Positions 1,461 through 62,956 of a DNA stretch of 64,000 bases are shown in pieces. Every line of letters begins with the position of its first letter. The stretch's first letter is position 1. This stretch comes from Parcubacteria group bacterium GW2011_GWC1_45_14 (GTDB lineage: Bacteria > Patescibacteriota > Minisyncoccia > Moranbacterales > GWC2-37-73), in the NCBI GenBank assembly GCA_001001345.1, contig LCKI01000001.1, positions 339 through 64,338 on the forward strand, given 5' to 3'. The notes below the pieces were generated by a model, which was not told the DNA's origin, did no database searches, and saw only the letters and a program-made list of their open reading frames with translations. A program made the position numbers and the translations under genes.

Positions 1461-2231
1461 TTAGCGGCATTTGAGATACATTAAAAACTCCTTTTTTCCT
1501 TTTCCTCCCAGAATAGGAGAGTCCGTGATTCCTATGATTTCAAACCCTAAATCTTTGGAGAGATTTTTTATTTTTTCGATGACTTCTTCGTGGAGATTTT
1601 CTTTGTTCACTATACCTTTTTTGATATGCTTTTTTCCTACTTCGAATTGCGGTTTGATGAGCGTGACGATTTCCCCTTTGGTTGAAATCAGTTCAGCGGC
1701 TTTCGGTAGGATATGCGAGAGGGAAATGAATGAGACGTCGATGCAGATGAAATCCAAAAGCTCGGAAAAATTTTCCTTGGATAGGTTTTTGATATGGGTG
1801 TTTTCCATATTCACGACCCTCTCGTCGCTCCTCAGTTTTTCCGCCAATTGTCCGCTACCCACGTCGACGGAGTAAACTTTCTCAGCCTTGTTTTCCAGTA
1901 GAACCTGGGCGAATCCTCCGGTACATGCTCCAAAGTCGGCGCATATTTTATTTTTGACGTCGATGTTCCAATGCTCCAATGCATGTTCCAGTTTCAAGCC
2001 GGCGCGCGAAACCCAGGGAATGTCCTGTTTAATTATTTCAATTTTTGAATTCTCATCCACTTGCTGGGTGGGTTTTGTCGCGATTTTGCCATTCACCCTG
2101 TTAAATTGCTCCGCACCGCCTTCAGCGGATTTAACAGGGTAAATCAAAACACCCCCGTCTTTAATGAGGTTTTTGGCGCGCTCCCTTGATTGCGCCAAGC
2201 CATTTTTTACCAGTAATGCATCCAGTCTCAT
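1461..2231 (-). CDS. tlyA: TlyA-family rRNA 2'-O-methyltransferase (S4 domain + FtsJ-like MTase)
   Basis: S4-like N-terminus (RLDALLVKNGLAQSRERAKNLI), FtsJ motif DFGACTGGF; contains in-frame repeat insertion at 2091-2143. Confidence 0.8.
   Translation of the reverse strand: MRLDALLVKNGLAQSRERAKNLIKDGGVLIYPVKSAEGGAEQFNRVNGKIATKPTQQVDENSKIEIIKQDIPWVSRAGLKLEHALEHWNIDVKNKICADFGACTGGFAQVLLENKAEKVYSVDVGSGQLAEKLRSDERVVNMENTHIKNLSKENFSELLDFICIDVSFISLSHILPKAAELISTKGEIVTLIKPQFEVGKKHIKKGIVNKENLHEEVIEKIKNLSKDLGFEIIGITDSPILGGKGKKEFLMYLKCR
2091..2143. repeat. Palindromic nested-hairpin element copy A, inserted in-frame inside tlyA (encodes YPVKSAEGGAEQFNRVN)
   Basis: ttcaccctgttaaat ... atttaacagggt inverted arms with internal hairpin, same family as copies at 11359, 14846, 14921, 42951, 56444, 62888. 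Confidence 0.6.
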
Positions 2232-11358: not shown

Positions 11359-11427
11359 ACAAAAATTCACCCTGTGAAATCCCCGACGAGTCGGGGTCCG
11401 CCTCCAGCGGAATTTCACAGGGTAAAA
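11359..11427. repeat. Palindromic nested-hairpin element copy B, 5' of the amidohydrolase gene
   Basis: acaaaaattcaccctgtgaaat ... aatttcacagggtaaaa with two internal hairpins. Confidence 0.6.
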
Positions 11428-13160: not shown

Positions 13161-14558
13161 ATGAATCCATCTTTTTTCAAAAATAAGAAAATAACCGTTT
13201 TCGGACTCGGCCTTCACGGCGGAGGAGTTGGCACGGTTAAGTTCTTGGTCGCCAACGGAGCCAAGGTTATCGTAACCGACATCAAAACGAGGGAGCAATT
13301 GGCATCCTCTTTGGATAAACTTAAGGGGTTGAAGAACGTCGAATATATCTTAGGGCAGCACCGACCGGAAAATTTCACCAAAGTGGATATGGTCATCAAA
13401 ACGCCTCCAGTCCCCTGGACGGACAAGAACGTGAAGCTTGCCCTGGACGCGGGCGTGCCTGTCGAGGGCGATTCGAGTCTTTTTTTTAAGCTCTGTAAAA
13501 ATCCGATCATCGGAGTGACGGGATCGAAAGGCAAGACGACCACGGCGGTTTTTATTTATGAAATCCTTAAGTCTGCCGGAAAGCATGCGGTCAAAGTCGG
13601 AATCGGACAGACTTCGGTTCTGGATAAATTGGCTTTGCTCAAGAAGGATTCCGTCGTGGTTTTCGAGCTTTCCAGTTGGAGGCTTTCCGCGTTGGGTAGA
13701 TATAACCTCAGCCCCCAGATCGCAGTTTTTAAAAATATGCTTCGCGACCATCTCAATTATTACAAGACGATGGAAGCCTACATGAAGGACAAGAAAAATA
13801 TTTTCCTTTTCCAGAAGCCCAAGGATTGGTTGGTTATCAATGAGGATGATGAGCTGGTGAGGGAGGCGGCCAAGGAGGCCAAATCTCAGATATTCAGATT
13901 TTCCTATAATCCCGTTGAAAAAAACAAAGCCGTATTTATCGACAACGACGCCATCTTCCTTAATAACGGTATAGACGTGAAGAAGTTGATTTCGCTTTCC
14001 GAGATAAAGATTCCGGGAAGGCATAATCTTTCCAATATCATGGCGGCGATCTCCGCTTGCTATGCGTTCGGCATCGCTGCGGCGGAAATAAAAAAGGCGG
14101 TCCCTGACCTTAAGGGTGTTCCGCACAGATTGGAGTTTGTGCGAGAGTTCTCCGGGGTGAGGTTTTATAATGATACGGCGGCGACTATCCCGGATGCTAC
14201 CATTTCAGCGCTTAACTCCTTTGAGGCCCCGATCACCTTGATTGCCGGTGGCACCGACAAGGGATTGGATTTTGCCGAGCTTGGAAAGGAAATTGTTCAG
14301 AAAGCGAAAAACGTCATCCTGCTCAAGGGCAATGCGACCGACGATCTTCTGATAAGGATTAGGAAGAATTTTCCCGAAGGACAAGAAAAAGAAATAGAAA
14401 TCGTGGACTCGATGGAAGAAGCTGTTGGGAAAGCTGTCGAGGTGGCTACGGCGGGGGATGTCGTCTTGCTTTCCCCGGGCGCGGCCAGTTTCGGGCTGTT
14501 TCTTAATGAATTCGACCGAGGGGAGAAATTCCGCGAAGCGGTGAATAGGTTGAAGTAG
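13161..14558 (+). CDS. murD: UDP-N-acetylmuramoylalanine--D-glutamate ligase
   Basis: GVTGSKGKTTT P-loop, Mur ligase architecture. Confidence 0.9.
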   Translation: MNPSFFKNKKITVFGLGLHGGGVGTVKFLVANGAKVIVTDIKTREQLASSLDKLKGLKNVEYILGQHRPENFTKVDMVIKTPPVPWTDKNVKLALDAGVPVEGDSSLFFKLCKNPIIGVTGSKGKTTTAVFIYEILKSAGKHAVKVGIGQTSVLDKLALLKKDSVVVFELSSWRLSALGRYNLSPQIAVFKNMLRDHLNYYKTMEAYMKDKKNIFLFQKPKDWLVINEDDELVREAAKEAKSQIFRFSYNPVEKNKAVFIDNDAIFLNNGIDVKKLISLSEIKIPGRHNLSNIMAAISACYAFGIAAAEIKKAVPDLKGVPHRLEFVREFSGVRFYNDTAATIPDATISALNSFEAPITLIAGGTDKGLDFAELGKEIVQKAKNVILLKGNATDDLLIRIRKNFPEGQEKEIEIVDSMEEAVGKAVEVATAGDVVLLSPGAASFGLFLNEFDRGEKFREAVNRLK

Positions 14559-14686
14559 GATTTATTTGGCCGTGCCGCGTGATCATGAGTGAACGTTCTT
14601 CTGCGTACCCACGTAAAATAATTTCTGTTGAAATTATCACGTGGCTCGCGAAAATCATTCACAAATGAACTCATGATTTTACGCGG

Positions 14687-14715
14687 TTGCTTTTTGGGAA
14701 AAAGTGTGCTATAAT
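14687..14715 (+). promoter_or_regulatory. Sigma70-like promoter TTGCTT-17-TATAAT followed by 6-codon mini-ORF (MKGVSP) and hairpin/T-run
   Basis: -35 at 14687-14692, -10 at 14710-14715, terminator-like hairpin around 14735-14770. Confidence 0.4.
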
Positions 14716-14845
14716 GGATATACGAAGGTAAATGAAGGGTGTTTCTCCGTAAGGGGAGCCCTTTTTTGCTTTTATATGGCCCTCCTTCGCACGAGGCTTC
14801 GGGCGGGTAAAAAGAAAAATGAATATTTCAATAGAAAACGGTTCT

Positions 14846-14910
14846 TTTTACCCTGTTAAATAATCCTGCTTGGGCGGGATTGCCGCTTAACGGCATTTAA
14901 CAGGGTGAAC
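14846..14910. repeat. Palindromic nested-hairpin element copy C1
   Basis: ccctgttaaataat ... atttaacagggtgaac. Confidence 0.6.
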
Positions 14911-14920
14911 AAAAATAAAT

Positions 14921-14990
14921 ACAAAAATTCACCCCTGTTAAATTGCGCTTGTAGCGCACCGGCCTTGCCGGATTTAACGGGGCAAGAAAA
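14921..14990. repeat. Palindromic nested-hairpin element copy C2 (tandem with C1)
   Basis: acaaaaattcacccctgttaaatt ... gatttaacggggcaagaaaa. Confidence 0.6.
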
Positions 14991-15063
14991 TTCCGCCAAA
15001 AAGCGGAAAAACCATCATAAAGGCTAGATTCCTCGCCTTTGTCCCTTCGAGGGACTCAACATG

Positions 15064-15102
15064 AAAAAGAATCCTGATTTAAAAGGATTCTTTTTGTTTT
15101 TT
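15064..15102 (+). terminator. Rho-independent terminator upstream of murA leader
   Basis: aaaaagaatcct-gatttaaa-aggattcttttt then gttttttc. Confidence 0.5.
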
Positions 15103-15308
15103 CTGCGCGTTTTTCCGTGGCTGAGCGCGGTGGGATTTGTCTTGAAAAAAACATAGGAGTGCGGTACACTGGGCGTATGCCCGGATGGGTGGTTTTTGAG
15201 GTTACAATAGGAATTGTTGAGAGTTTTTGAAGGTAGTATAGGATAACAATAACTTCGTTATAAATAATTCCTTCGGGGGGAAACCTGAGACGGAATTTTG
15301 AAAAATAT

Positions 15309-16577
15309 ATGGATTATTTCGTCATCAATGGGGGCAAAAAACTTGCCGGTGAAATCGAAGTGCGCGGAAGCAAAAATGCGGCCGCCCCGATAATCGCGGC
15401 GACGCTCCTGACCAAGGAGCCTTGCGTGCTTTCCAATGTCCCGCTTATTGAGGATATCTTCAAGCTTCTTGAAATCATCAAGAGCATGGGAGCGGAGGTG
15501 GAATGGGTCGGGGAAAGGAAAGTGAAGATCACCGCCAAGGATTTGGACGTGGAGAAGATAGATTACGAACTGGTCAAGAAAATCAGATTGTCCGTGCTCC
15601 TGCTGGGATCGCTTTCGGCGCGTTTTGACAAATTCGAGCTGGCTAATCCTGGCGGATGCAAGATCGGCAAAAGGCCATTGGGAACACATTTCCATGCGCT
15701 GGAGGAATTGGGAGTCAAAGTTACTCAGGATGAGAAGTTTTATCTGGTGGATGCGAGCAAAAGGAAGGATGCGCAGATAATCTTGAGGGAGTTTTCCGTG
15801 ACTGCGACCGAGATTGCTATGATGCTCGCTGCCGGAATGCCGGGAAAGACGATAATCAAGATCGCTGCAGCCGAACCGCACGTGGAGGATTTGGGGAAAT
15901 TCCTGATCAGGATGGGCGCGAAGATAAAAGGCCTTGGGACGCACACTTTGGAAATCGAAGGAACCAGGAAACTTGACGGTGCAAAACACGAAATAATTCC
16001 GGATGCCAATGAGGCGGCGACGTTCCTGATCATGGGAGTCGCGACCAAGAGTCCGATTATCGTCAAGAACGCGCGCGAAGAACATTTGGATTTGGTGTTG
16101 GAGAAACTGCGCGAGATGGGAGCGGAATTTTTGGTTAGGAAAAATGAGATCCAAGTAATTCCGGCAAAAAAAATCAAGGCTCTTTCTAAAATCGATGCTA
16201 GGATTTATCCCGGAATTCCGACCGACGATCAAGCGCTGTTCGGCGTTTTGGCGACGCAGGCTGAAGGTGAGACTTTGGTATTCGATACGCTTTTCGAAGG
16301 AAGGTTTAATTATGTGACGGAGATTGAAAAGATGGGAGCGACCGTGAAAGTTCTCAACCCGCACCAGGCCGTCTTTACGGGACCGACGCCGCTTCGAGGG
16401 GAAACGATCACGAGCTATGACCTGCGTGCCGGAGCCTCGCTGATTTTGGCCGCGCTTTTGGCGAAAGGACAATCCGTGATCAAGGAGATTTACCAAGTCG
16501 ATCGCGGTTATGAAAAAATAGAGGAGAGGTTGCAAAAATTGGGAGCGGACATCCAAAGGGTGCCGGAAGGGGAATAG
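15309..16577 (+). CDS. murA: UDP-N-acetylglucosamine 1-carboxyvinyltransferase
   Basis: GGKKLAGEIEVRGSKNAA N-terminus; EPSP-synthase fold length. Confidence 0.9.
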   Translation: MDYFVINGGKKLAGEIEVRGSKNAAAPIIAATLLTKEPCVLSNVPLIEDIFKLLEIIKSMGAEVEWVGERKVKITAKDLDVEKIDYELVKKIRLSVLLLGSLSARFDKFELANPGGCKIGKRPLGTHFHALEELGVKVTQDEKFYLVDASKRKDAQIILREFSVTATEIAMMLAAGMPGKTIIKIAAAEPHVEDLGKFLIRMGAKIKGLGTHTLEIEGTRKLDGAKHEIIPDANEAATFLIMGVATKSPIIVKNAREEHLDLVLEKLREMGAEFLVRKNEIQVIPAKKIKALSKIDARIYPGIPTDDQALFGVLATQAEGETLVFDTLFEGRFNYVTEIEKMGATVKVLNPHQAVFTGPTPLRGETITSYDLRAGASLILAALLAKGQSVIKEIYQVDRGYEKIEERLQKLGADIQRVPEGE

Positions 16578-42950: not shown

Positions 42951-43025
42951 ACAAAAATTCACCCAGTTAAATAATTTTGCTTTTGGCAAAATTTCCGCAA
43001 AGCGGAATTTAACGGGGCAAGAAAG
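42951..43025. repeat. Palindromic nested-hairpin element copy D
   Basis: acaaaaattcacccagttaaataat ... aatttaacggggcaagaaag. Confidence 0.6.
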
Positions 43026-50682: not shown

Positions 50683-50765
50683 GGGTAGTTGGCGGAGTGG
50701 TCAATCGCAGCTGACTGTAAATCAGCCGACTTCGGTCTTCGGGGGTTCGAATCCCTCACTGCCCA
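50683..50765 (+). tRNA. tRNA-Tyr(GUA) with long variable arm
   Basis: acceptor GGGTAGT/ACTGCCC, anticodon loop CTGTAAA, T-loop GGTTCGAATCC. Confidence 0.8.
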
Positions 50766-50862
50766 CCGCGTAAAATCATGAGCTTTGCGAGTGATTTAAG
50801 CGCCCCGTGATAATTTGCGAAAGCGAATTATTTTACGGGGATATACCATTAAAAATAAGCTC

Positions 50863-51156
50863 ATGATCACGCGGCACGGCCGTGAGGGATTCTACTATGT
50901 ATATGTCATAGAAAATGACCATGATTTGAGTTGGTATATTGGATTTACGATTAATTTTGGAAAAAGATTGCAGGAGCACAACTCCGGTAAATCACCGTAT
51001 ACTTCCAGGAAACAGGGAAAACGGAGGGTTATATATGCGGAGTGTTATCTTTCCAAAAAAGATGCGTTGTCAAGGGAGGAATTCTTGAAATCCGGTTCTG
51101 GTAGAAGATTTTTAAAGAACCAATTAAAGAACTACTTGCACGCGACGCCGTTGTAG
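50863..51156 (+). CDS. GIY-YIG nuclease domain protein (YhbQ/UPF0213-like), stop overlaps 5' end of tRNA-Thr(GGU)
   Basis: FYYVYVIEN...WYIGFTINFGKRLQEHNSG. Confidence 0.6.
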   Translation: MITRHGREGFYYVYVIENDHDLSWYIGFTINFGKRLQEHNSGKSPYTSRKQGKRRVIYAECYLSKKDALSREEFLKSGSGRRFLKNQLKNYLHATPL

Positions 51157-56443: not shown

Positions 56444-56508
56444 ACAAAAATTCACCCTGTTGAATCCCCGATGCTTCGGGGTCGGCTGGGCCGAATTCAA
56501 CAGGGTAA
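56444..56508. repeat. Palindromic nested-hairpin element copy E, right arm abuts ATG of oxidoreductase
   Basis: aaaacaaaaattcaccctgttgaat ... attcaacagggtaa. Confidence 0.6.
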
Positions 56509-57873
56509 ATGAAAAAAATACTTTCAATCGGTTGCGGAGGAGCTGGAATGTTCAGTGCCATCGTCGCGACGCAACTGAGAAAGGGGGAATTTGAGGCGAT
56601 AGTGCTTTCGGATGAGAAGGATATCTATTGCCGTTGCACGACGCCGTATATCGTGACGGGAGAAGCCCAGCTATGCGACGCTATCCAGCCGGAGAGCATG
56701 ATCGAGAGTTATGGTCCGAAAATCGTGCATGAAAAAGCTATCAGTATAAATACTAAAAAGAAACACGTCCTTACGAAAGAAGGGCACATTTTCGATTATG
56801 ACTACCTGGTCATCGCTACCGGAGCATCTCCCTTTGTTCCCCAAATCAAGGGAATAGATTCCGAAAAGGTCTATACAGTCAGAAACAGTTCCGATATGGA
56901 ATGCATCCAAGGGTGCCTGGGAAAATCCAAGAGCGCGGTCGTGGTCGGCGCGGGAGTCATCGGGATCGAGATGGCGGGAGCGCTAAGAGCCAGAGGTCTG
57001 GACGTGAGTTTGGTGGAATACGCGTCCTCGCTTTCTTCCGGCATCGCCGACAAGGAATTTTCCAAAAAAATAATCTCCCACCTGGAAGAGAATGGAATAA
57101 GGACGATGTTCAGAAGCAAAGTCGTGGAGATCAATGACGCATCAAGAAAAAGAAAAGAAATAGTTATTAAAAAAGGAAGGAATCAGGAGAAACTGGTCGC
57201 CGATTTCGTGGTAGTGGCGGCGGGAATACGCCCCAATTTGGATGTCATCGAAGGAACGAAGATCAAAGCCAATCAATTCGGGATATTGGTTGATGGGAAA
57301 ATGCAGACGAACGCGAAGGACGTCTATGCTTGCGGAGATTGCGCTGTGCCTATTTCGGCGGTGACTGGAAAAAACGAGCCGAGCTCGCTGGCTTCAAGCG
57401 CTATCCAACAGTCCAAGATCGTCGGCTACCAGATGGCCAGTTTTCCAATCAAATATGCCGGCTCGACCGGGGCGTTCGCTTTCCAGACGCTCGGAAAAGA
57501 ATATGCGGCTGCGGGACTGACCGAGGAGGAAGCGCGCAAGAAATTCAGGTGGGTGGTCGTTGGACGCGCCGCGACTACGGATGTGTATAAGGATTTGGAA
57601 CGTAACAAGCCCTTGGACGTGAAACTGATCTTTGCCGGACCCAAGATGAGGTTGGTCGGTTATGAAGGTTTCGGCAACGGAGTGATCGCCTCGGCGGAAG
57701 TGGCCAGTTTCGCGATCGGACTCCGTCTGAATATCTTGAAAGTCCTGAAATTCAACTACATCGCTCATCCGAGCCTGACTCCTTGGCCGTTCATGAATCC
57801 GATTATCATGGCGACCGAGGACGCGGTGGGGAGTATTATGAAAAAAATCAAGGTTTTTTTCGGGAAAAAATAG
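56509..57873 (+). CDS. FAD-dependent pyridine nucleotide-disulfide oxidoreductase (NADH oxidase/CoA-disulfide reductase family)
   Basis: GCGGAG FAD motif, VVVGAGVIGIEMAGAL NAD motif, redox Cys YCRCTTPY. Confidence 0.8.
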   Translation: MKKILSIGCGGAGMFSAIVATQLRKGEFEAIVLSDEKDIYCRCTTPYIVTGEAQLCDAIQPESMIESYGPKIVHEKAISINTKKKHVLTKEGHIFDYDYLVIATGASPFVPQIKGIDSEKVYTVRNSSDMECIQGCLGKSKSAVVVGAGVIGIEMAGALRARGLDVSLVEYASSLSSGIADKEFSKKIISHLEENGIRTMFRSKVVEINDASRKRKEIVIKKGRNQEKLVADFVVVAAGIRPNLDVIEGTKIKANQFGILVDGKMQTNAKDVYACGDCAVPISAVTGKNEPSSLASSAIQQSKIVGYQMASFPIKYAGSTGAFAFQTLGKEYAAAGLTEEEARKKFRWVVVGRAATTDVYKDLERNKPLDVKLIFAGPKMRLVGYEGFGNGVIASAEVASFAIGLRLNILKVLKFNYIAHPSLTPWPFMNPIIMATEDAVGSIMKKIKVFFGKK

Positions 57874-61491: not shown

Positions 61492-62907
61492 ATGGCGGAG
61501 AAAAAGGAAAACATGATGGAAAAAATCGTTTCGCTTTGCAAAAGGAGGGGTTTTGCGTTCCCTTCATCCGAAATCTACGGAGGGTTCGCGGCTATCTATG
61601 ATTACGGGCATTACGGAACGCTTCTCAAAAACAATATCCGCGACGCCTGGTGGAGGCATATGGTGCAATACAGGGATGACGTCGTCGGTTTGGACAGCGC
61701 GATCTTCATGCATCCCACGACCTGGAAAGCTTCCGGGCACATAGACAGCTTCGATGATCCGCAGATCGATTGCAAGAAATGCAAAGCCAGGATGAGGGCG
61801 GACCATGTCTTGGAGCTTTTCGGCATCAGCGCCGACAAGGCCCCCTTGGATTTCATCAATGTCGAATTGGGGAAATTGCGCGAACTTGGAAAATTGAAAT
61901 GCCAGACTTGCGGTTCGGATGAATTGACTGAGGCGAAAAGATTTTCCTTGATGGTCAAATCGAATCTGGGATCCCCGACGGATGCCCTCAGTGAGGAGAA
62001 TGTGGTGTATTTGCGTCCGGAAACTTGCGGAGGGATATACTTGGAATACAAAAACACTTTGGATTCGACCCGCGTGAAACTCCCTTTCGGAATAGCCCAA
62101 GTGGGAAAAGCGTTCAGGAATGAAATCGTGGCGAGGCAGTTCGTTTTCAGGACGAGGGAATTCGAGCAGATGGAGATGCAATACTTCCTGCACCCGAAGG
62201 ATATGAAGGAGAAATATGATATGTGGAAGCAGGTCAGATGGGATTGGTACAAGGAATATGGCATGGGCGAGGATGATGTCAGGTGGTACGAGCATGAGAA
62301 ATTGGCGCACTACGCTTCGGAAGCCTATGACGTCGAATATAATTTCAAATCCTTGGGAGGCTTCAAGGAAGTGGAAGGAATCCATGCTAGGGGCGATTGG
62401 GATCTTTCCCAGCACAGCAAGTTCTCCGGAACCGACCTGAGTTATTTCGATGAAAAGACTGGAGAGAAATTCATTCCCCATATTATGGAGACATCAGTGG
62501 GTCTCAACCGTCTGTTTTTGATGTTTATCGACAAGGCTTACACTGAAGAGGAAATCAGCGGTGAGATAAGGACCGTCCTTAAGTTCGACAAGAGGTTGGC
62601 TCCGATTAAGGTCGCCATCTTCCCTTTGATGAAAAACAGGCCCGAACTGGTCGGAAAAGCCAGGGAAATCTATGACAATCTCAAACTCAGTTTCATGTGC
62701 GAATTCGACGACAACGGAAATGTCGGAAAAAGATACCGCCGACAGGACGAGATCGGAACCCCGTATTGCGTAACCGTGGATTTCGATTCTCTGGAAAAAG
62801 GCGACGTGACGGTGCGCGACCGCGACACGATGGAGCAGGAAAGGGTGAAAATAGAAGAATTGGAAAATTATTTCACGGAGAAGTTTAATGTTCACCCTGT
62901 TAAATAA
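61492..62907 (+). CDS. glyQS: Glycyl-tRNA synthetase, alpha2 dimeric type
   Basis: KRRGFAFPSSEIYGGFAAIYDYGHYGTLLKNNIRDAWW N-terminus; last 5 codons and stop supplied by repeat copy F. Confidence 0.85.
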   Translation: MAEKKENMMEKIVSLCKRRGFAFPSSEIYGGFAAIYDYGHYGTLLKNNIRDAWWRHMVQYRDDVVGLDSAIFMHPTTWKASGHIDSFDDPQIDCKKCKARMRADHVLELFGISADKAPLDFINVELGKLRELGKLKCQTCGSDELTEAKRFSLMVKSNLGSPTDALSEENVVYLRPETCGGIYLEYKNTLDSTRVKLPFGIAQVGKAFRNEIVARQFVFRTREFEQMEMQYFLHPKDMKEKYDMWKQVRWDWYKEYGMGEDDVRWYEHEKLAHYASEAYDVEYNFKSLGGFKEVEGIHARGDWDLSQHSKFSGTDLSYFDEKTGEKFIPHIMETSVGLNRLFLMFIDKAYTEEEISGEIRTVLKFDKRLAPIKVAIFPLMKNRPELVGKAREIYDNLKLSFMCEFDDNGNVGKRYRRQDEIGTPYCVTVDFDSLEKGDVTVRDRDTMEQERVKIEELENYFTEKFNVHPVK

Positions 62908-62956
62908 TTTTGCTTAGGCAAAATTCCTGCGCTGCAGGATTCAACGGGGCAAGAAT
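62888..62956. repeat. Palindromic nested-hairpin element copy F overlapping glyQS stop
   Basis: ttcaccctgttaaataat ... attcaacggggcaagaatc. Confidence 0.6.

Follow-up and report, generated by a model that had tools for sequence, protein, structure and literature searches.

The window analysed here is a stretch of 64,000 nt from contig LCKI01000001.1 of Parcubacteria group bacterium GW2011_GWC1_45_14. The locus under study is the spacer of 750 nt between murD (13161..14558) and murA (15309..16577), that is positions 14559-15308; both genes were confirmed by Pfam. The spacer contains a long imperfect hairpin (repeat H), a sigma-70-type promoter, a short open reading frame (ORF) for MKGVSP that overlaps a hairpin and a T-run, two tandem palindromic elements (C1 and C2), an intrinsic terminator and a second promoter before murA. 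Coordinates are listed in Table 1. A sequence-only reading had named these features and had taken the spacer for a regulated leader or an independent small-RNA locus. All of the features are present in the sequence at or close to where it placed them: the palindrome at 14610-14650 is real and forms the centre of the longer hairpin H, the hairpin over the ORF is reported by the terminator scan, C1 and C2 are recovered by a covariance model, and the second promoter is reported by the promoter scan. The interpretation was partly supported. The spacer is probably a composite of a split small-RNA gene, a separate murA promoter, an insert with C1 and C2, and the hairpin repeat H, and the C elements are probably mobile DNA hairpins similar to repetitive extragenic palindromic (REP) sequences and to MITEs, the miniature transposable elements with inverted repeats.

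The comparison set consisted of the murA neighbourhoods of relatives with 80-87% identical MurA (L126, L127, L128, L252, L253 and L254), a strain locus 99% identical to the window (L004) and the locus of a tlyA orthologue (L255). Contigs of GCA_003484185.1 and several groundwater metagenomes encode the identical MurD protein. The MurA cluster carries the name Moranbacteria, and the genome is that of a Candidatus Moranbacteria member (Patescibacteria/CPR) from groundwater. The length of the spacer varies, with 128 nt in L126, 263 nt in L128, 515 nt in L254, 750 nt in the window and 2.2 kb in L127. Three pieces of it are conserved in relatives: the core of the small-RNA promoter, the small-RNA body and the murA promoter. 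The terminator scan returned nine terminator-like sites (1.4 expected) and the promoter scan five promoter-like sites (1.3 expected). An assembly or adapter artefact was considered and rejected, as independent assemblies (ENA, NCBI and Logan) give the same locus, the interiors of the C element copies differ, and one copy lies in frame within a gene.

The small-RNA promoter was missed by the simple scanner because its -35 hexamer matches at 3/6 positions only. Its core (TTGCTTTTT...TGCTATAAT) shows no change among four genomes (the window, L254, L128 and L127) while the flanks diverge. L254 and L128 continue, 19 nt past the -10 box, with AAAGGCTAGATTCC..., the sequence that begins at 15019 in the window. 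The complete unit of these two relatives reads promoter, 19 nt, AAAGGCTAGATTCCT(C/T)GCCTTT, a second hairpin (TCTCC..GGAGA) and a terminator. Hairpin 1 of the body is identical in the window and L128 and differs by 1 nt from L254. Hairpin 2 is GTCCC/GGGAC in the window and TCTCC/GGAGA in L254 and L128; it has changed on both sides, and the pairing is therefore kept (compensatory change). The terminator is present in all three genomes; in the window its stem has 12 bp, and GTTTTTT comes next. A promoter of its own, an intrinsic terminator and a conserved structured stretch, as expected for a stand-alone small-RNA gene, are thus found intact in L254 and L128 and interrupted in the window. As read from these sequences, the ancestral layout is murD, a strong promoter, a small RNA of ~95 nt (two hairpins and a terminator), the murA promoter and murA. 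By its sequence, UAGAUUCCUC, the hairpin 1 loop resembles a seed of the anti-Shine-Dalgarno type.

The interruption in the window is a lineage-specific block of ~270 nt, missing from L254 and L128, that lies between the promoter with the initial ~20 nt of the RNA and the small-RNA body. The predicted short transcript carries the conserved 5' end (GAAGGTAAAT / GAAGGGTG) and then a terminator-like hairpin (14741-14759) followed by CCTTTTTT (terminator scan); its fold is unremarkable (z = -1.2). The MKGVSP frame runs from an ATG at 14732 to a TAA ending at 14752, and the hairpin over it combines the old 5' end (GAAGGGTG) with the opening bases of the insert. Neither this ATG nor the hairpin is present in L254 and L128, where the RNA runs straight into the body. 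The same promoter is followed in L127, one of the two closest relatives, by a homologous hairpin with T-run but no ATG, so that the ORF is without a counterpart in L127, L128 and L254. Of what the sequence-only reading raised, the small-RNA locus is supported by the promoter and body conserved in relatives, and the leader-peptide attenuator is not; the promoter core is kept across relatives and the mini-ORF is not. The ancestral small-RNA gene appears to have been split ~20 nt after its start by ~270 nt of hairpin-rich DNA. The hairpin and T-run at the left edge of the insert would probably stop most transcripts after ~45 nt, and the MKGVSP frame would be an accident of the insertion junction. 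The RNA body (15019-15102) would be left without a promoter of its own; it may be expressed through read-through only, or be heading for loss, a fate that it has already met in L127 and L126.

C1 and C2 belong to a family of elements of 50-65 nt. Each element consists of an outer stem P1 (CACCCTGTTAAAT / ATTTAACAGGGTA, 11-15 bp) that encloses hairpin A (9-21 nt) and hairpin B (~13 nt). The pattern CTGTTAAAT-N15-45-ATTTAAC has five matches in the window against 0.00 expected. A covariance model (R1), built from 15 element copies and run on the window with filters off, finds exactly seven copies, all of which score better on the + strand. All seven fold as the same three-way junction without unpaired junction bases (single-stranded DNA fold, z -4.0 to -8.6), and the sequences of the inner hairpins differ from copy to copy. 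Since conserved arms surround two back-to-back hairpins of free sequence, either single strand can fold as a three-way junction. C1 scores 75.6 bits with the model (E = 1e-18) and its DNA fold has -20.8 kcal/mol (z = -7.7); C2, the tandem second copy, scores 48.6 bits (E = 3e-11) with a fold z of -6.0. Rather than local regulatory palindromes, the two are copies of a dispersed, insertion-polymorphic family.

An A-rich leader motif, AAAACAAAAAT, occurs six times in the window (0.39 expected), always on the + strand (11356, 21630, 30767, 42948, 56441 and 59171). Three of the occurrences lie directly 5' of an element, and two are found in leaders just upstream of start codons, without an element. 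C2 follows a variant of it, ATACAAAAAT. This distribution suggests a preferred insertion target or a tolerated niche; the motif may be a leader motif, an insertion target, or both. The target of the element appears to be located 3' of ...AT/TT, in many cases behind this motif.

Species representatives of GTDB were scanned with GTTAAAT-N20-50-ATTTAACRGGG; all figures across phyla refer to the matches listed. Fully palindromic matches, in which the left CCC(T/C) was not constrained by the pattern, were found in many Patescibacteria lineages, Desulfobacterales, Thermodesulfobacteriota, WOR-3 and Omnitrophota. Further carriers are Bacteroidales, Calditrichota, uncultured Gammaproteobacteria, Saccharibacteria and others. 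Locus L030 is part of a 949-kb Doudnabacteria contig (CAVYGQ010000001.1) and L007 of a 608-kb Levybacteria contig (CAVRKE010000001.1); the match in L007 has a weak score with model R1 and may be a degenerate copy. The majority of the copies (61/77) are intergenic. No element match was found in plasmids, and one was found in viral contigs. Exactly two abutting hairpins, with no base left over, make up the interior of 43 of 75 non-redundant copies, a layout seen in 0/3750 shuffles. In the model-based alignment 94.2% of the cells are paired (74.5% in shuffles), and both-sided changes amount to 746 cells against 235 in shuffles. All four Watson-Crick pair types occur at every position of the inner helices 2 and 3. 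The left-arm base left free by the scan pattern covaries with the R of the right arm (T-A 96, C-G 22 and mixed 10 strand-reads). A search of 18 element-bearing loci with Rfam gave tRNAs only, and a search of the literature by sequence and topic gave no description of the element, so that the family is apparently undescribed. Gene exchange of groundwater Patescibacteria with Omnitrophota, Bacteroidota and Desulfobacterota has been reported (PMC12455944). These partners are among the element-carrying phyla, which makes horizontal spread plausible and is no proof of it.

Several copies in the window are polymorphic insertions. In tlyA, which encodes an rRNA 2'-O-methyltransferase, the element is a 48-nt in-frame insertion within the S4 domain. 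The Pfam S4 match ends at residue 30, where a 14-residue gap to the TlyA in PDB is located, and tlyA orthologues at 88% identity are shorter by exactly 16 residues. The filled site reads ...TTGATT[TACCCTGTTAAAT...ATTTAACAGGGTG]AATGGC... in the window, and the empty site reads ...TTAATT|GACGGT... in L255. At this single comparable site there is no target-site duplication (filled ...ATT[48 nt]AAT..., empty ...ATT|GAC...). The C-terminus of glyS (glycyl-tRNA synthetase) has been remodelled by another copy, which gives the last ~5 codons and the TAA. The copy in the spacer between rnc and the amidohydrolase gene is missing from the same spacer in L126, L127, L128 and L254. In L004 an extra 33 nt follow C2 (L004 2011-2045, equivalent to window ~14980): CCGG, the hairpin TGCGCTAGGGCGCA and then ATTCAACAGGGCAAG. 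This strain-level indel equals the 3' half of an element and is bounded by GGGCAAG on both sides.

Four observations bear on whether the element acts as DNA or as RNA. Relative to co-directional flanking genes, 17 copies have the same orientation and 10 the opposite one, which is not significant. Mismatches on the canonical strand comprise 26 G.T and 44 A.C. Triloops account for 78 of the 127 loops, and these are often GC-closed GAA or AAA. Some copies are antisense inside genes. Taken together, these results argue against a strand-specific RNA role. The mismatch counts gave no useful signal for choosing an RNA strand.

It is nevertheless conceivable, though unlikely, that the C elements are cis-acting at the level of RNA and have spread by duplication, as processing sites (e.g., for RNase III), mRNA stabilisers or attenuators. 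REP sequences are known in such roles. The strong covariation and the intergenic position of most copies would agree with this, as would the location of several window copies in 5' leaders directly after the motif AAAACAAAAAT; moreover, P1 stacked on hairpin A gives a helix of ~22 bp. On the other side stand the missing bias for the orientation of transcription, the copies antisense within coding sequence, the predominance of triloops and the fact that G-U is not in excess over A-C on either strand. In addition, the sequence of the arms is conserved across phyla beyond its pairing, which points to recognition of the sequence by a protein.

From the insertion polymorphisms and the lack of a strand-specific RNA signal, the element is therefore read as a REP/MITE-like mobile DNA hairpin. 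It would be a selfish element that an enzyme with its gene at another place in the genome recognises and moves in the form of a folded DNA hairpin; effects on RNA, if there are any, would come second. An HUH/Y1-type enzyme is one candidate mover; a tyrosine recombinase is another, because the arms contain GTTRRRY/RYYYAAC. The lack of a duplication at tlyA and the preference at the left flank would fit single-strand (HUH-type) transposition.

Several points weigh against the composite reading with mobile C elements. The copy in the rnc spacer is flanked by AAAAAACAAA on both sides, which could be a duplication and conflicts with the tlyA site; these A-rich direct repeats are ambiguous because the sequence is of low complexity. 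The uniform orientation of the copies in the window (7/7, p ~0.016) is not mirrored elsewhere, and orientation relative to local GC skew is split 21:21, so that replication-coupled single-strand transposition is not supported beyond the window. No transposase or recombinase is linked to the element: among 314 neighbouring ORFs that were clustered (120 element loci listed), only housekeeping families recur. A Y1 transposase is also missing from the Pfam annotation of called genes at window ~3-24 kb (L001) and ~44-64 kb (L131). In ~1 Mb of element loci no long arm pair, as expected of an autonomous relative with the same ends, was found, but degenerate copies only. The covariation counts come from an alignment fitted to the model, in which many copies are represented by both strands. 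The small RNA is known from three genomes only, and it, its promoter and the terminators are sequence predictions. Two further points, a functional long RNA and the binding of a host protein to the arms, are considered in the following.

Read-through of the first hairpin could yield a functional RNA of ~380 nt (~14722-15102), in which C1 and C2 would have been recruited as structural domains and the first hairpin would be leaky or regulated. The stretch has one promoter at its start and one strong terminator at its end, the body is without a detectable promoter of its own (promoter scan), C1 and C2 fold very stably, and the perfect conservation of body hairpin 1, still identical to that of L128, fits continued use. 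This long RNA is quite unlikely, however: a hairpin with six Ts lies ~45 nt past the start, the close relative L127 keeps the short form only, the C1/C2 element is also located in coding regions and unrelated spacers, and strain L004 tolerates a 33-nt indel within the stretch.

The strong conservation of the arms across phyla might also stem from binding by a conserved host protein and not by the enzyme of a mobile element. The arms would then be duplex sites for chromosome organisation or recombination, bound by a Xer-type recombinase or a ParB- or LexA-like protein. Such a protein would explain why the arm sequence is shared among phyla; the arms contain GTTRRRY/RYYYAAC, and TGTTAAAT is what we take to be the outer 8 nt of the XerD arm of E. 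coli dif. Yet the half-sites are reversed in order and 20-50 nt apart, unlike those of dif, attC and parS, some copies lie inside genes, and the compensatory changes of the arms together with the structured interiors point to a hairpin and not to two independent duplex sites, which makes this explanation very improbable. The resemblances to attC, dif, parS and the LexA box were rejected, with half-sites wrong in order or spacing, and were kept as leads only.

The murA gene is predicted to be transcribed from its own conserved promoter: TTGAAA-17-TAnAnT is located upstream of murA in seven genomes (the window, L126, L127, L128, L252, L253 and L254). The sequence-only reading had mentioned a leader-peptide attenuator of cell-wall genes, in which the promoter at 14687 would drive a leader and the MKGVSP ORF over the terminator hairpin would couple translation to termination ahead of murA or other cell-wall genes; this is extremely improbable and contradicted by the comparative data, for although the promoter, a weak Shine-Dalgarno-like GAAGG, the ATG and a hairpin with T-run over the ORF are all present, the ORF is not conserved (L127, L128, L254), the hairpin lies at the edge of a lineage-specific insertion, the ~540 nt to murA hold two mobile repeats, the strong terminator at 15064-15102 and the conserved murA promoter, and the short transcript, with its unremarkable fold, has neither an alternative antiterminator pairing nor regulatory codons. 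What seemed an unusual attenuator of cell-wall genes would thus be corrected to an accident of repeat insertion into a small-RNA gene.

Among known repeat systems, REP/REPIN sequences, which are mobilised by RAYT (an HUH Y1 transposase), are similar to the C element in being short, non-coding hairpin repeats with many copies, mostly intergenic and often in tandem pairs. Both are without target-site duplication and show compensatory changes that keep the structure. The enzyme is encoded elsewhere, as would presumably hold for the C element, so that most copies have no linked gene. The C element has seven copies in 64 kb, and 61 of 77 listed copies lie between genes, but one copy is located in tlyA and one overlaps the end of glyS. 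It differs from REP/REPIN in its flanks, which read TT(C/T)A to the left and T(A/G)AA to the right both in the window and in other phyla, where a REP has a GTAG or CGTC tag at the 5' foot of its palindrome. Its outer stem and two inner hairpins make up a three-way junction, whereas a REP is a single hairpin. Its inner parts are hypervariable even within one genome, and its arms are common to several phyla, whereas REPs are lineage-specific.

MITEs and the Rickettsia palindromic elements (RPEs) share with the C element terminal inverted repeats, small size and dispersed copies, and also the in-frame insertion into a conserved protein (tlyA) and the donation of a stop codon (glyS). In contrast to them, the C element is without target-site duplication at tlyA, and no parent insertion sequence with the same ends was found in the ~1 Mb of element loci. 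RPEs have a size of ~100-150 nt, whereas the C element is much smaller (50-65 nt) and its interior sequence is not conserved. The attC sites of integrons resemble it in the conserved 7-nt RYYYAAC/GTTRRRY boxes that pair in the folded single strand, in the variable but structured centre and in the similar environmental phyla; some Desulfobacterales copies of the element also contain an extra-helical G. The order of the boxes differs, however, with 5'-GTTAAAT...ATTTAAC-3' on either strand of the C element and 5'-RYYYAAC...GTTRRRY-3' in attC. The C copies are scattered among and even inside housekeeping genes, with neither cassette arrays nor an enriched integrase nearby. The element is thus similar to REPs, MITEs/RPEs and attC but fails a defining feature of each, namely the GTAG tag, the target-site duplication and the order of the boxes.

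A more general proposal is put forward as a tentative one. The elements may represent an as yet undescribed minimal class of mobile DNA across phyla, a perfect three-way junction of 50-65 nt in which only the sequence of the outer stem (containing GTTRRRY/RYYYAAC) is fixed. They would be moved as folded single-stranded DNA by a widespread enzyme (a Xer- or integron-type tyrosine recombinase, an HUH nuclease or a small, structure-specific GIY-YIG nuclease) and would spread among co-resident Patescibacteria, Omnitrophota, Desulfobacterota, WOR-3 and Bacteroidota. If mobile as folded DNA, the element would rank with the smallest known mobile units and would mark exchange of DNA between bacteria of groundwater and sediment, and the enzyme that moves it would be of interest in the study of single-strand DNA recombination. 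In-frame insertions and donated stop codons affect gene calling in metagenome-assembled genomes.

The small RNA is comparable to the RsaE/RoxS-type small RNAs of Firmicutes, which have C/U-rich apical loops. It has its own promoter, ~95 nt and an intrinsic terminator, and the loop of its 5' hairpin contains UCCUC, complementary to the Shine-Dalgarno sequence GAGGA. Unlike them, it is without sequence or Rfam similarity, is found in three Moranbacteria genomes only, and its gene is interrupted in the window. To our knowledge almost no regulatory RNAs are known in Moranbacteria, and the locus adds a candidate with a conserved promoter and an anti-Shine-Dalgarno-like loop.

Table 1. Features of the murD-murA spacer and copies of its repeats elsewhere in the window
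Feature	Positions	Strand	Details
Hairpin repeat H	14569..14687	+	imperfect palindrome, ~119 nt, between murD stop codon and small-RNA -35; contains 14610-14650 palindrome
Small-RNA promoter, sigma-70 type	14687..14715	+	TTGCTT (14687-92), 17 nt, extended -10 TGcTATAAT (14707-15)
Predicted short transcript	14722..14770	+	conserved 5' end, hairpin, T-run; includes mini-ORF 14732-14752
Lineage-specific inserted block	14742..15013	+	~270 nt; edges good to ~5-8 nt; missing from L254 and L128
C1	14846..14910	+	P1 arms ACCCTGTTAAAT / ATTTAACAGGGT; hairpin A AATCCTGC..GCGGGATT; hairpin B GCCG..CGGC
C2, tandem second copy	14927..14987	+	inner hairpins TGCGC..GCGCA and CCGGC..GCCGG
Small-RNA body (predicted)	15019..15102	+	hairpin 1 15019-15040 (loop UAGAUUCCUC); hairpin 2 15041-15055; intrinsic terminator 15064-15102
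murA promoter (predicted)	15142..15170	+	TTGAAA, 17 nt, TACACT (promoter scan)
murA 5' untranslated region	15171..15308	+	~138 nt; GC hairpin and T-run at 15178-15200 (terminator-like match)
Element copy in tlyA coding sequence	2091..2144	+	gene 1461-2231, - strand; covariance model
Element copy, rnc-amidohydrolase spacer	11365..11427	+	compensatory arms GTGAAAT / ATTTCAC
Element copy, intergenic	42957..43022	+	covariance model, fold
Element copy in 5' leader	56450..56510	+	compensatory arms GTTGAAT / ATTCAAC
Element copy over glyS 3' end	62890..62954	+	ORF 61492-62907; supplies last ~5 codons and TAA stop
Second H copy	50765..50881	-	77% identity over 123 nt, E = 6e-12; compensatory stem changes

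The DNA fold of H has -28.5 kcal/mol (z = -5.4), and 0/200 shuffles are as stable. Its last base abuts the -35 box of the small-RNA promoter. A reading of 14569-14687 as an operator array was dropped, as the whole hairpin has a second copy in the window; for the same reason H is regarded as the second of two hairpin-repeat families. L254 has it in the same position, with blocks of up to 34 nt identical and the stretches between them diverged, and L126, L127 and L128 are without it. H would have landed just upstream of the small-RNA promoter. The second copy borders directly on tRNA-Tyr and runs over the start of a small GIY-YIG ORF (neighbouring features at 50683-50767 and ~50863-51156), and another small GIY-YIG ORF is located ~0.9 kb beyond that one.

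The 5' untranslated region of murA is 77% identical to that of L127 over 82 nt and could be a real regulatory leader of the gene. The murD-murA junction is an insertion hot spot. In L127 (7883-9556) it holds two extra ORFs of 131 and 405 aa without Pfam match, and in L252 (2151-3785) a SulP/STAS transporter gene is inserted on the opposite strand.

Outside the window, the element copies of WOR-3 (L031, L039, L046, L060 and L123) have an unstructured interior of 40 nt and the direct repeat AACCACAGA on both sides. The repeat represents a duplication of 9 bp or else belongs to a larger repeat, and contrasts with the duplication-free tlyA site. In Desulfobacterales (L082 4390-4590, L055 4740-4940, L100 1800-2000 and 4940-5200) the element is central in an inverted-repeat unit of ~190 nt, e.g., TTCGTAAAAAGTCCA ... 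TGGACTTTTTACGAA, an arrangement that suggests nested elements.

A search with Rfam 15 at gathering and permissive thresholds gave no credible match with E<=10, neither for the spacer nor for the small RNA of L254, and the only matches in the whole window are three tRNAs. Weak matches to the plant microRNA, Phe_leader and RT-14 models were rejected as artefacts of a generic hairpin/terminator shape. When metagenomes were scanned with a 16-mer from the small-RNA loop (GGCTAGATTCCTCGCC), a pattern too short for such a collection, at least 120 matches were listed; those listed are chance matches in unrelated high-GC DNA, except the contig of L128. The sub-threshold RT-14 match covers the intact small RNA and promoter of L254 (3614-3740) with 25 bits against a cut-off of 48 (E = 0.27) and is probably due to chance. 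The contig of L128 carries reverse-transcriptase ORFs ~10 kb from the small RNA.

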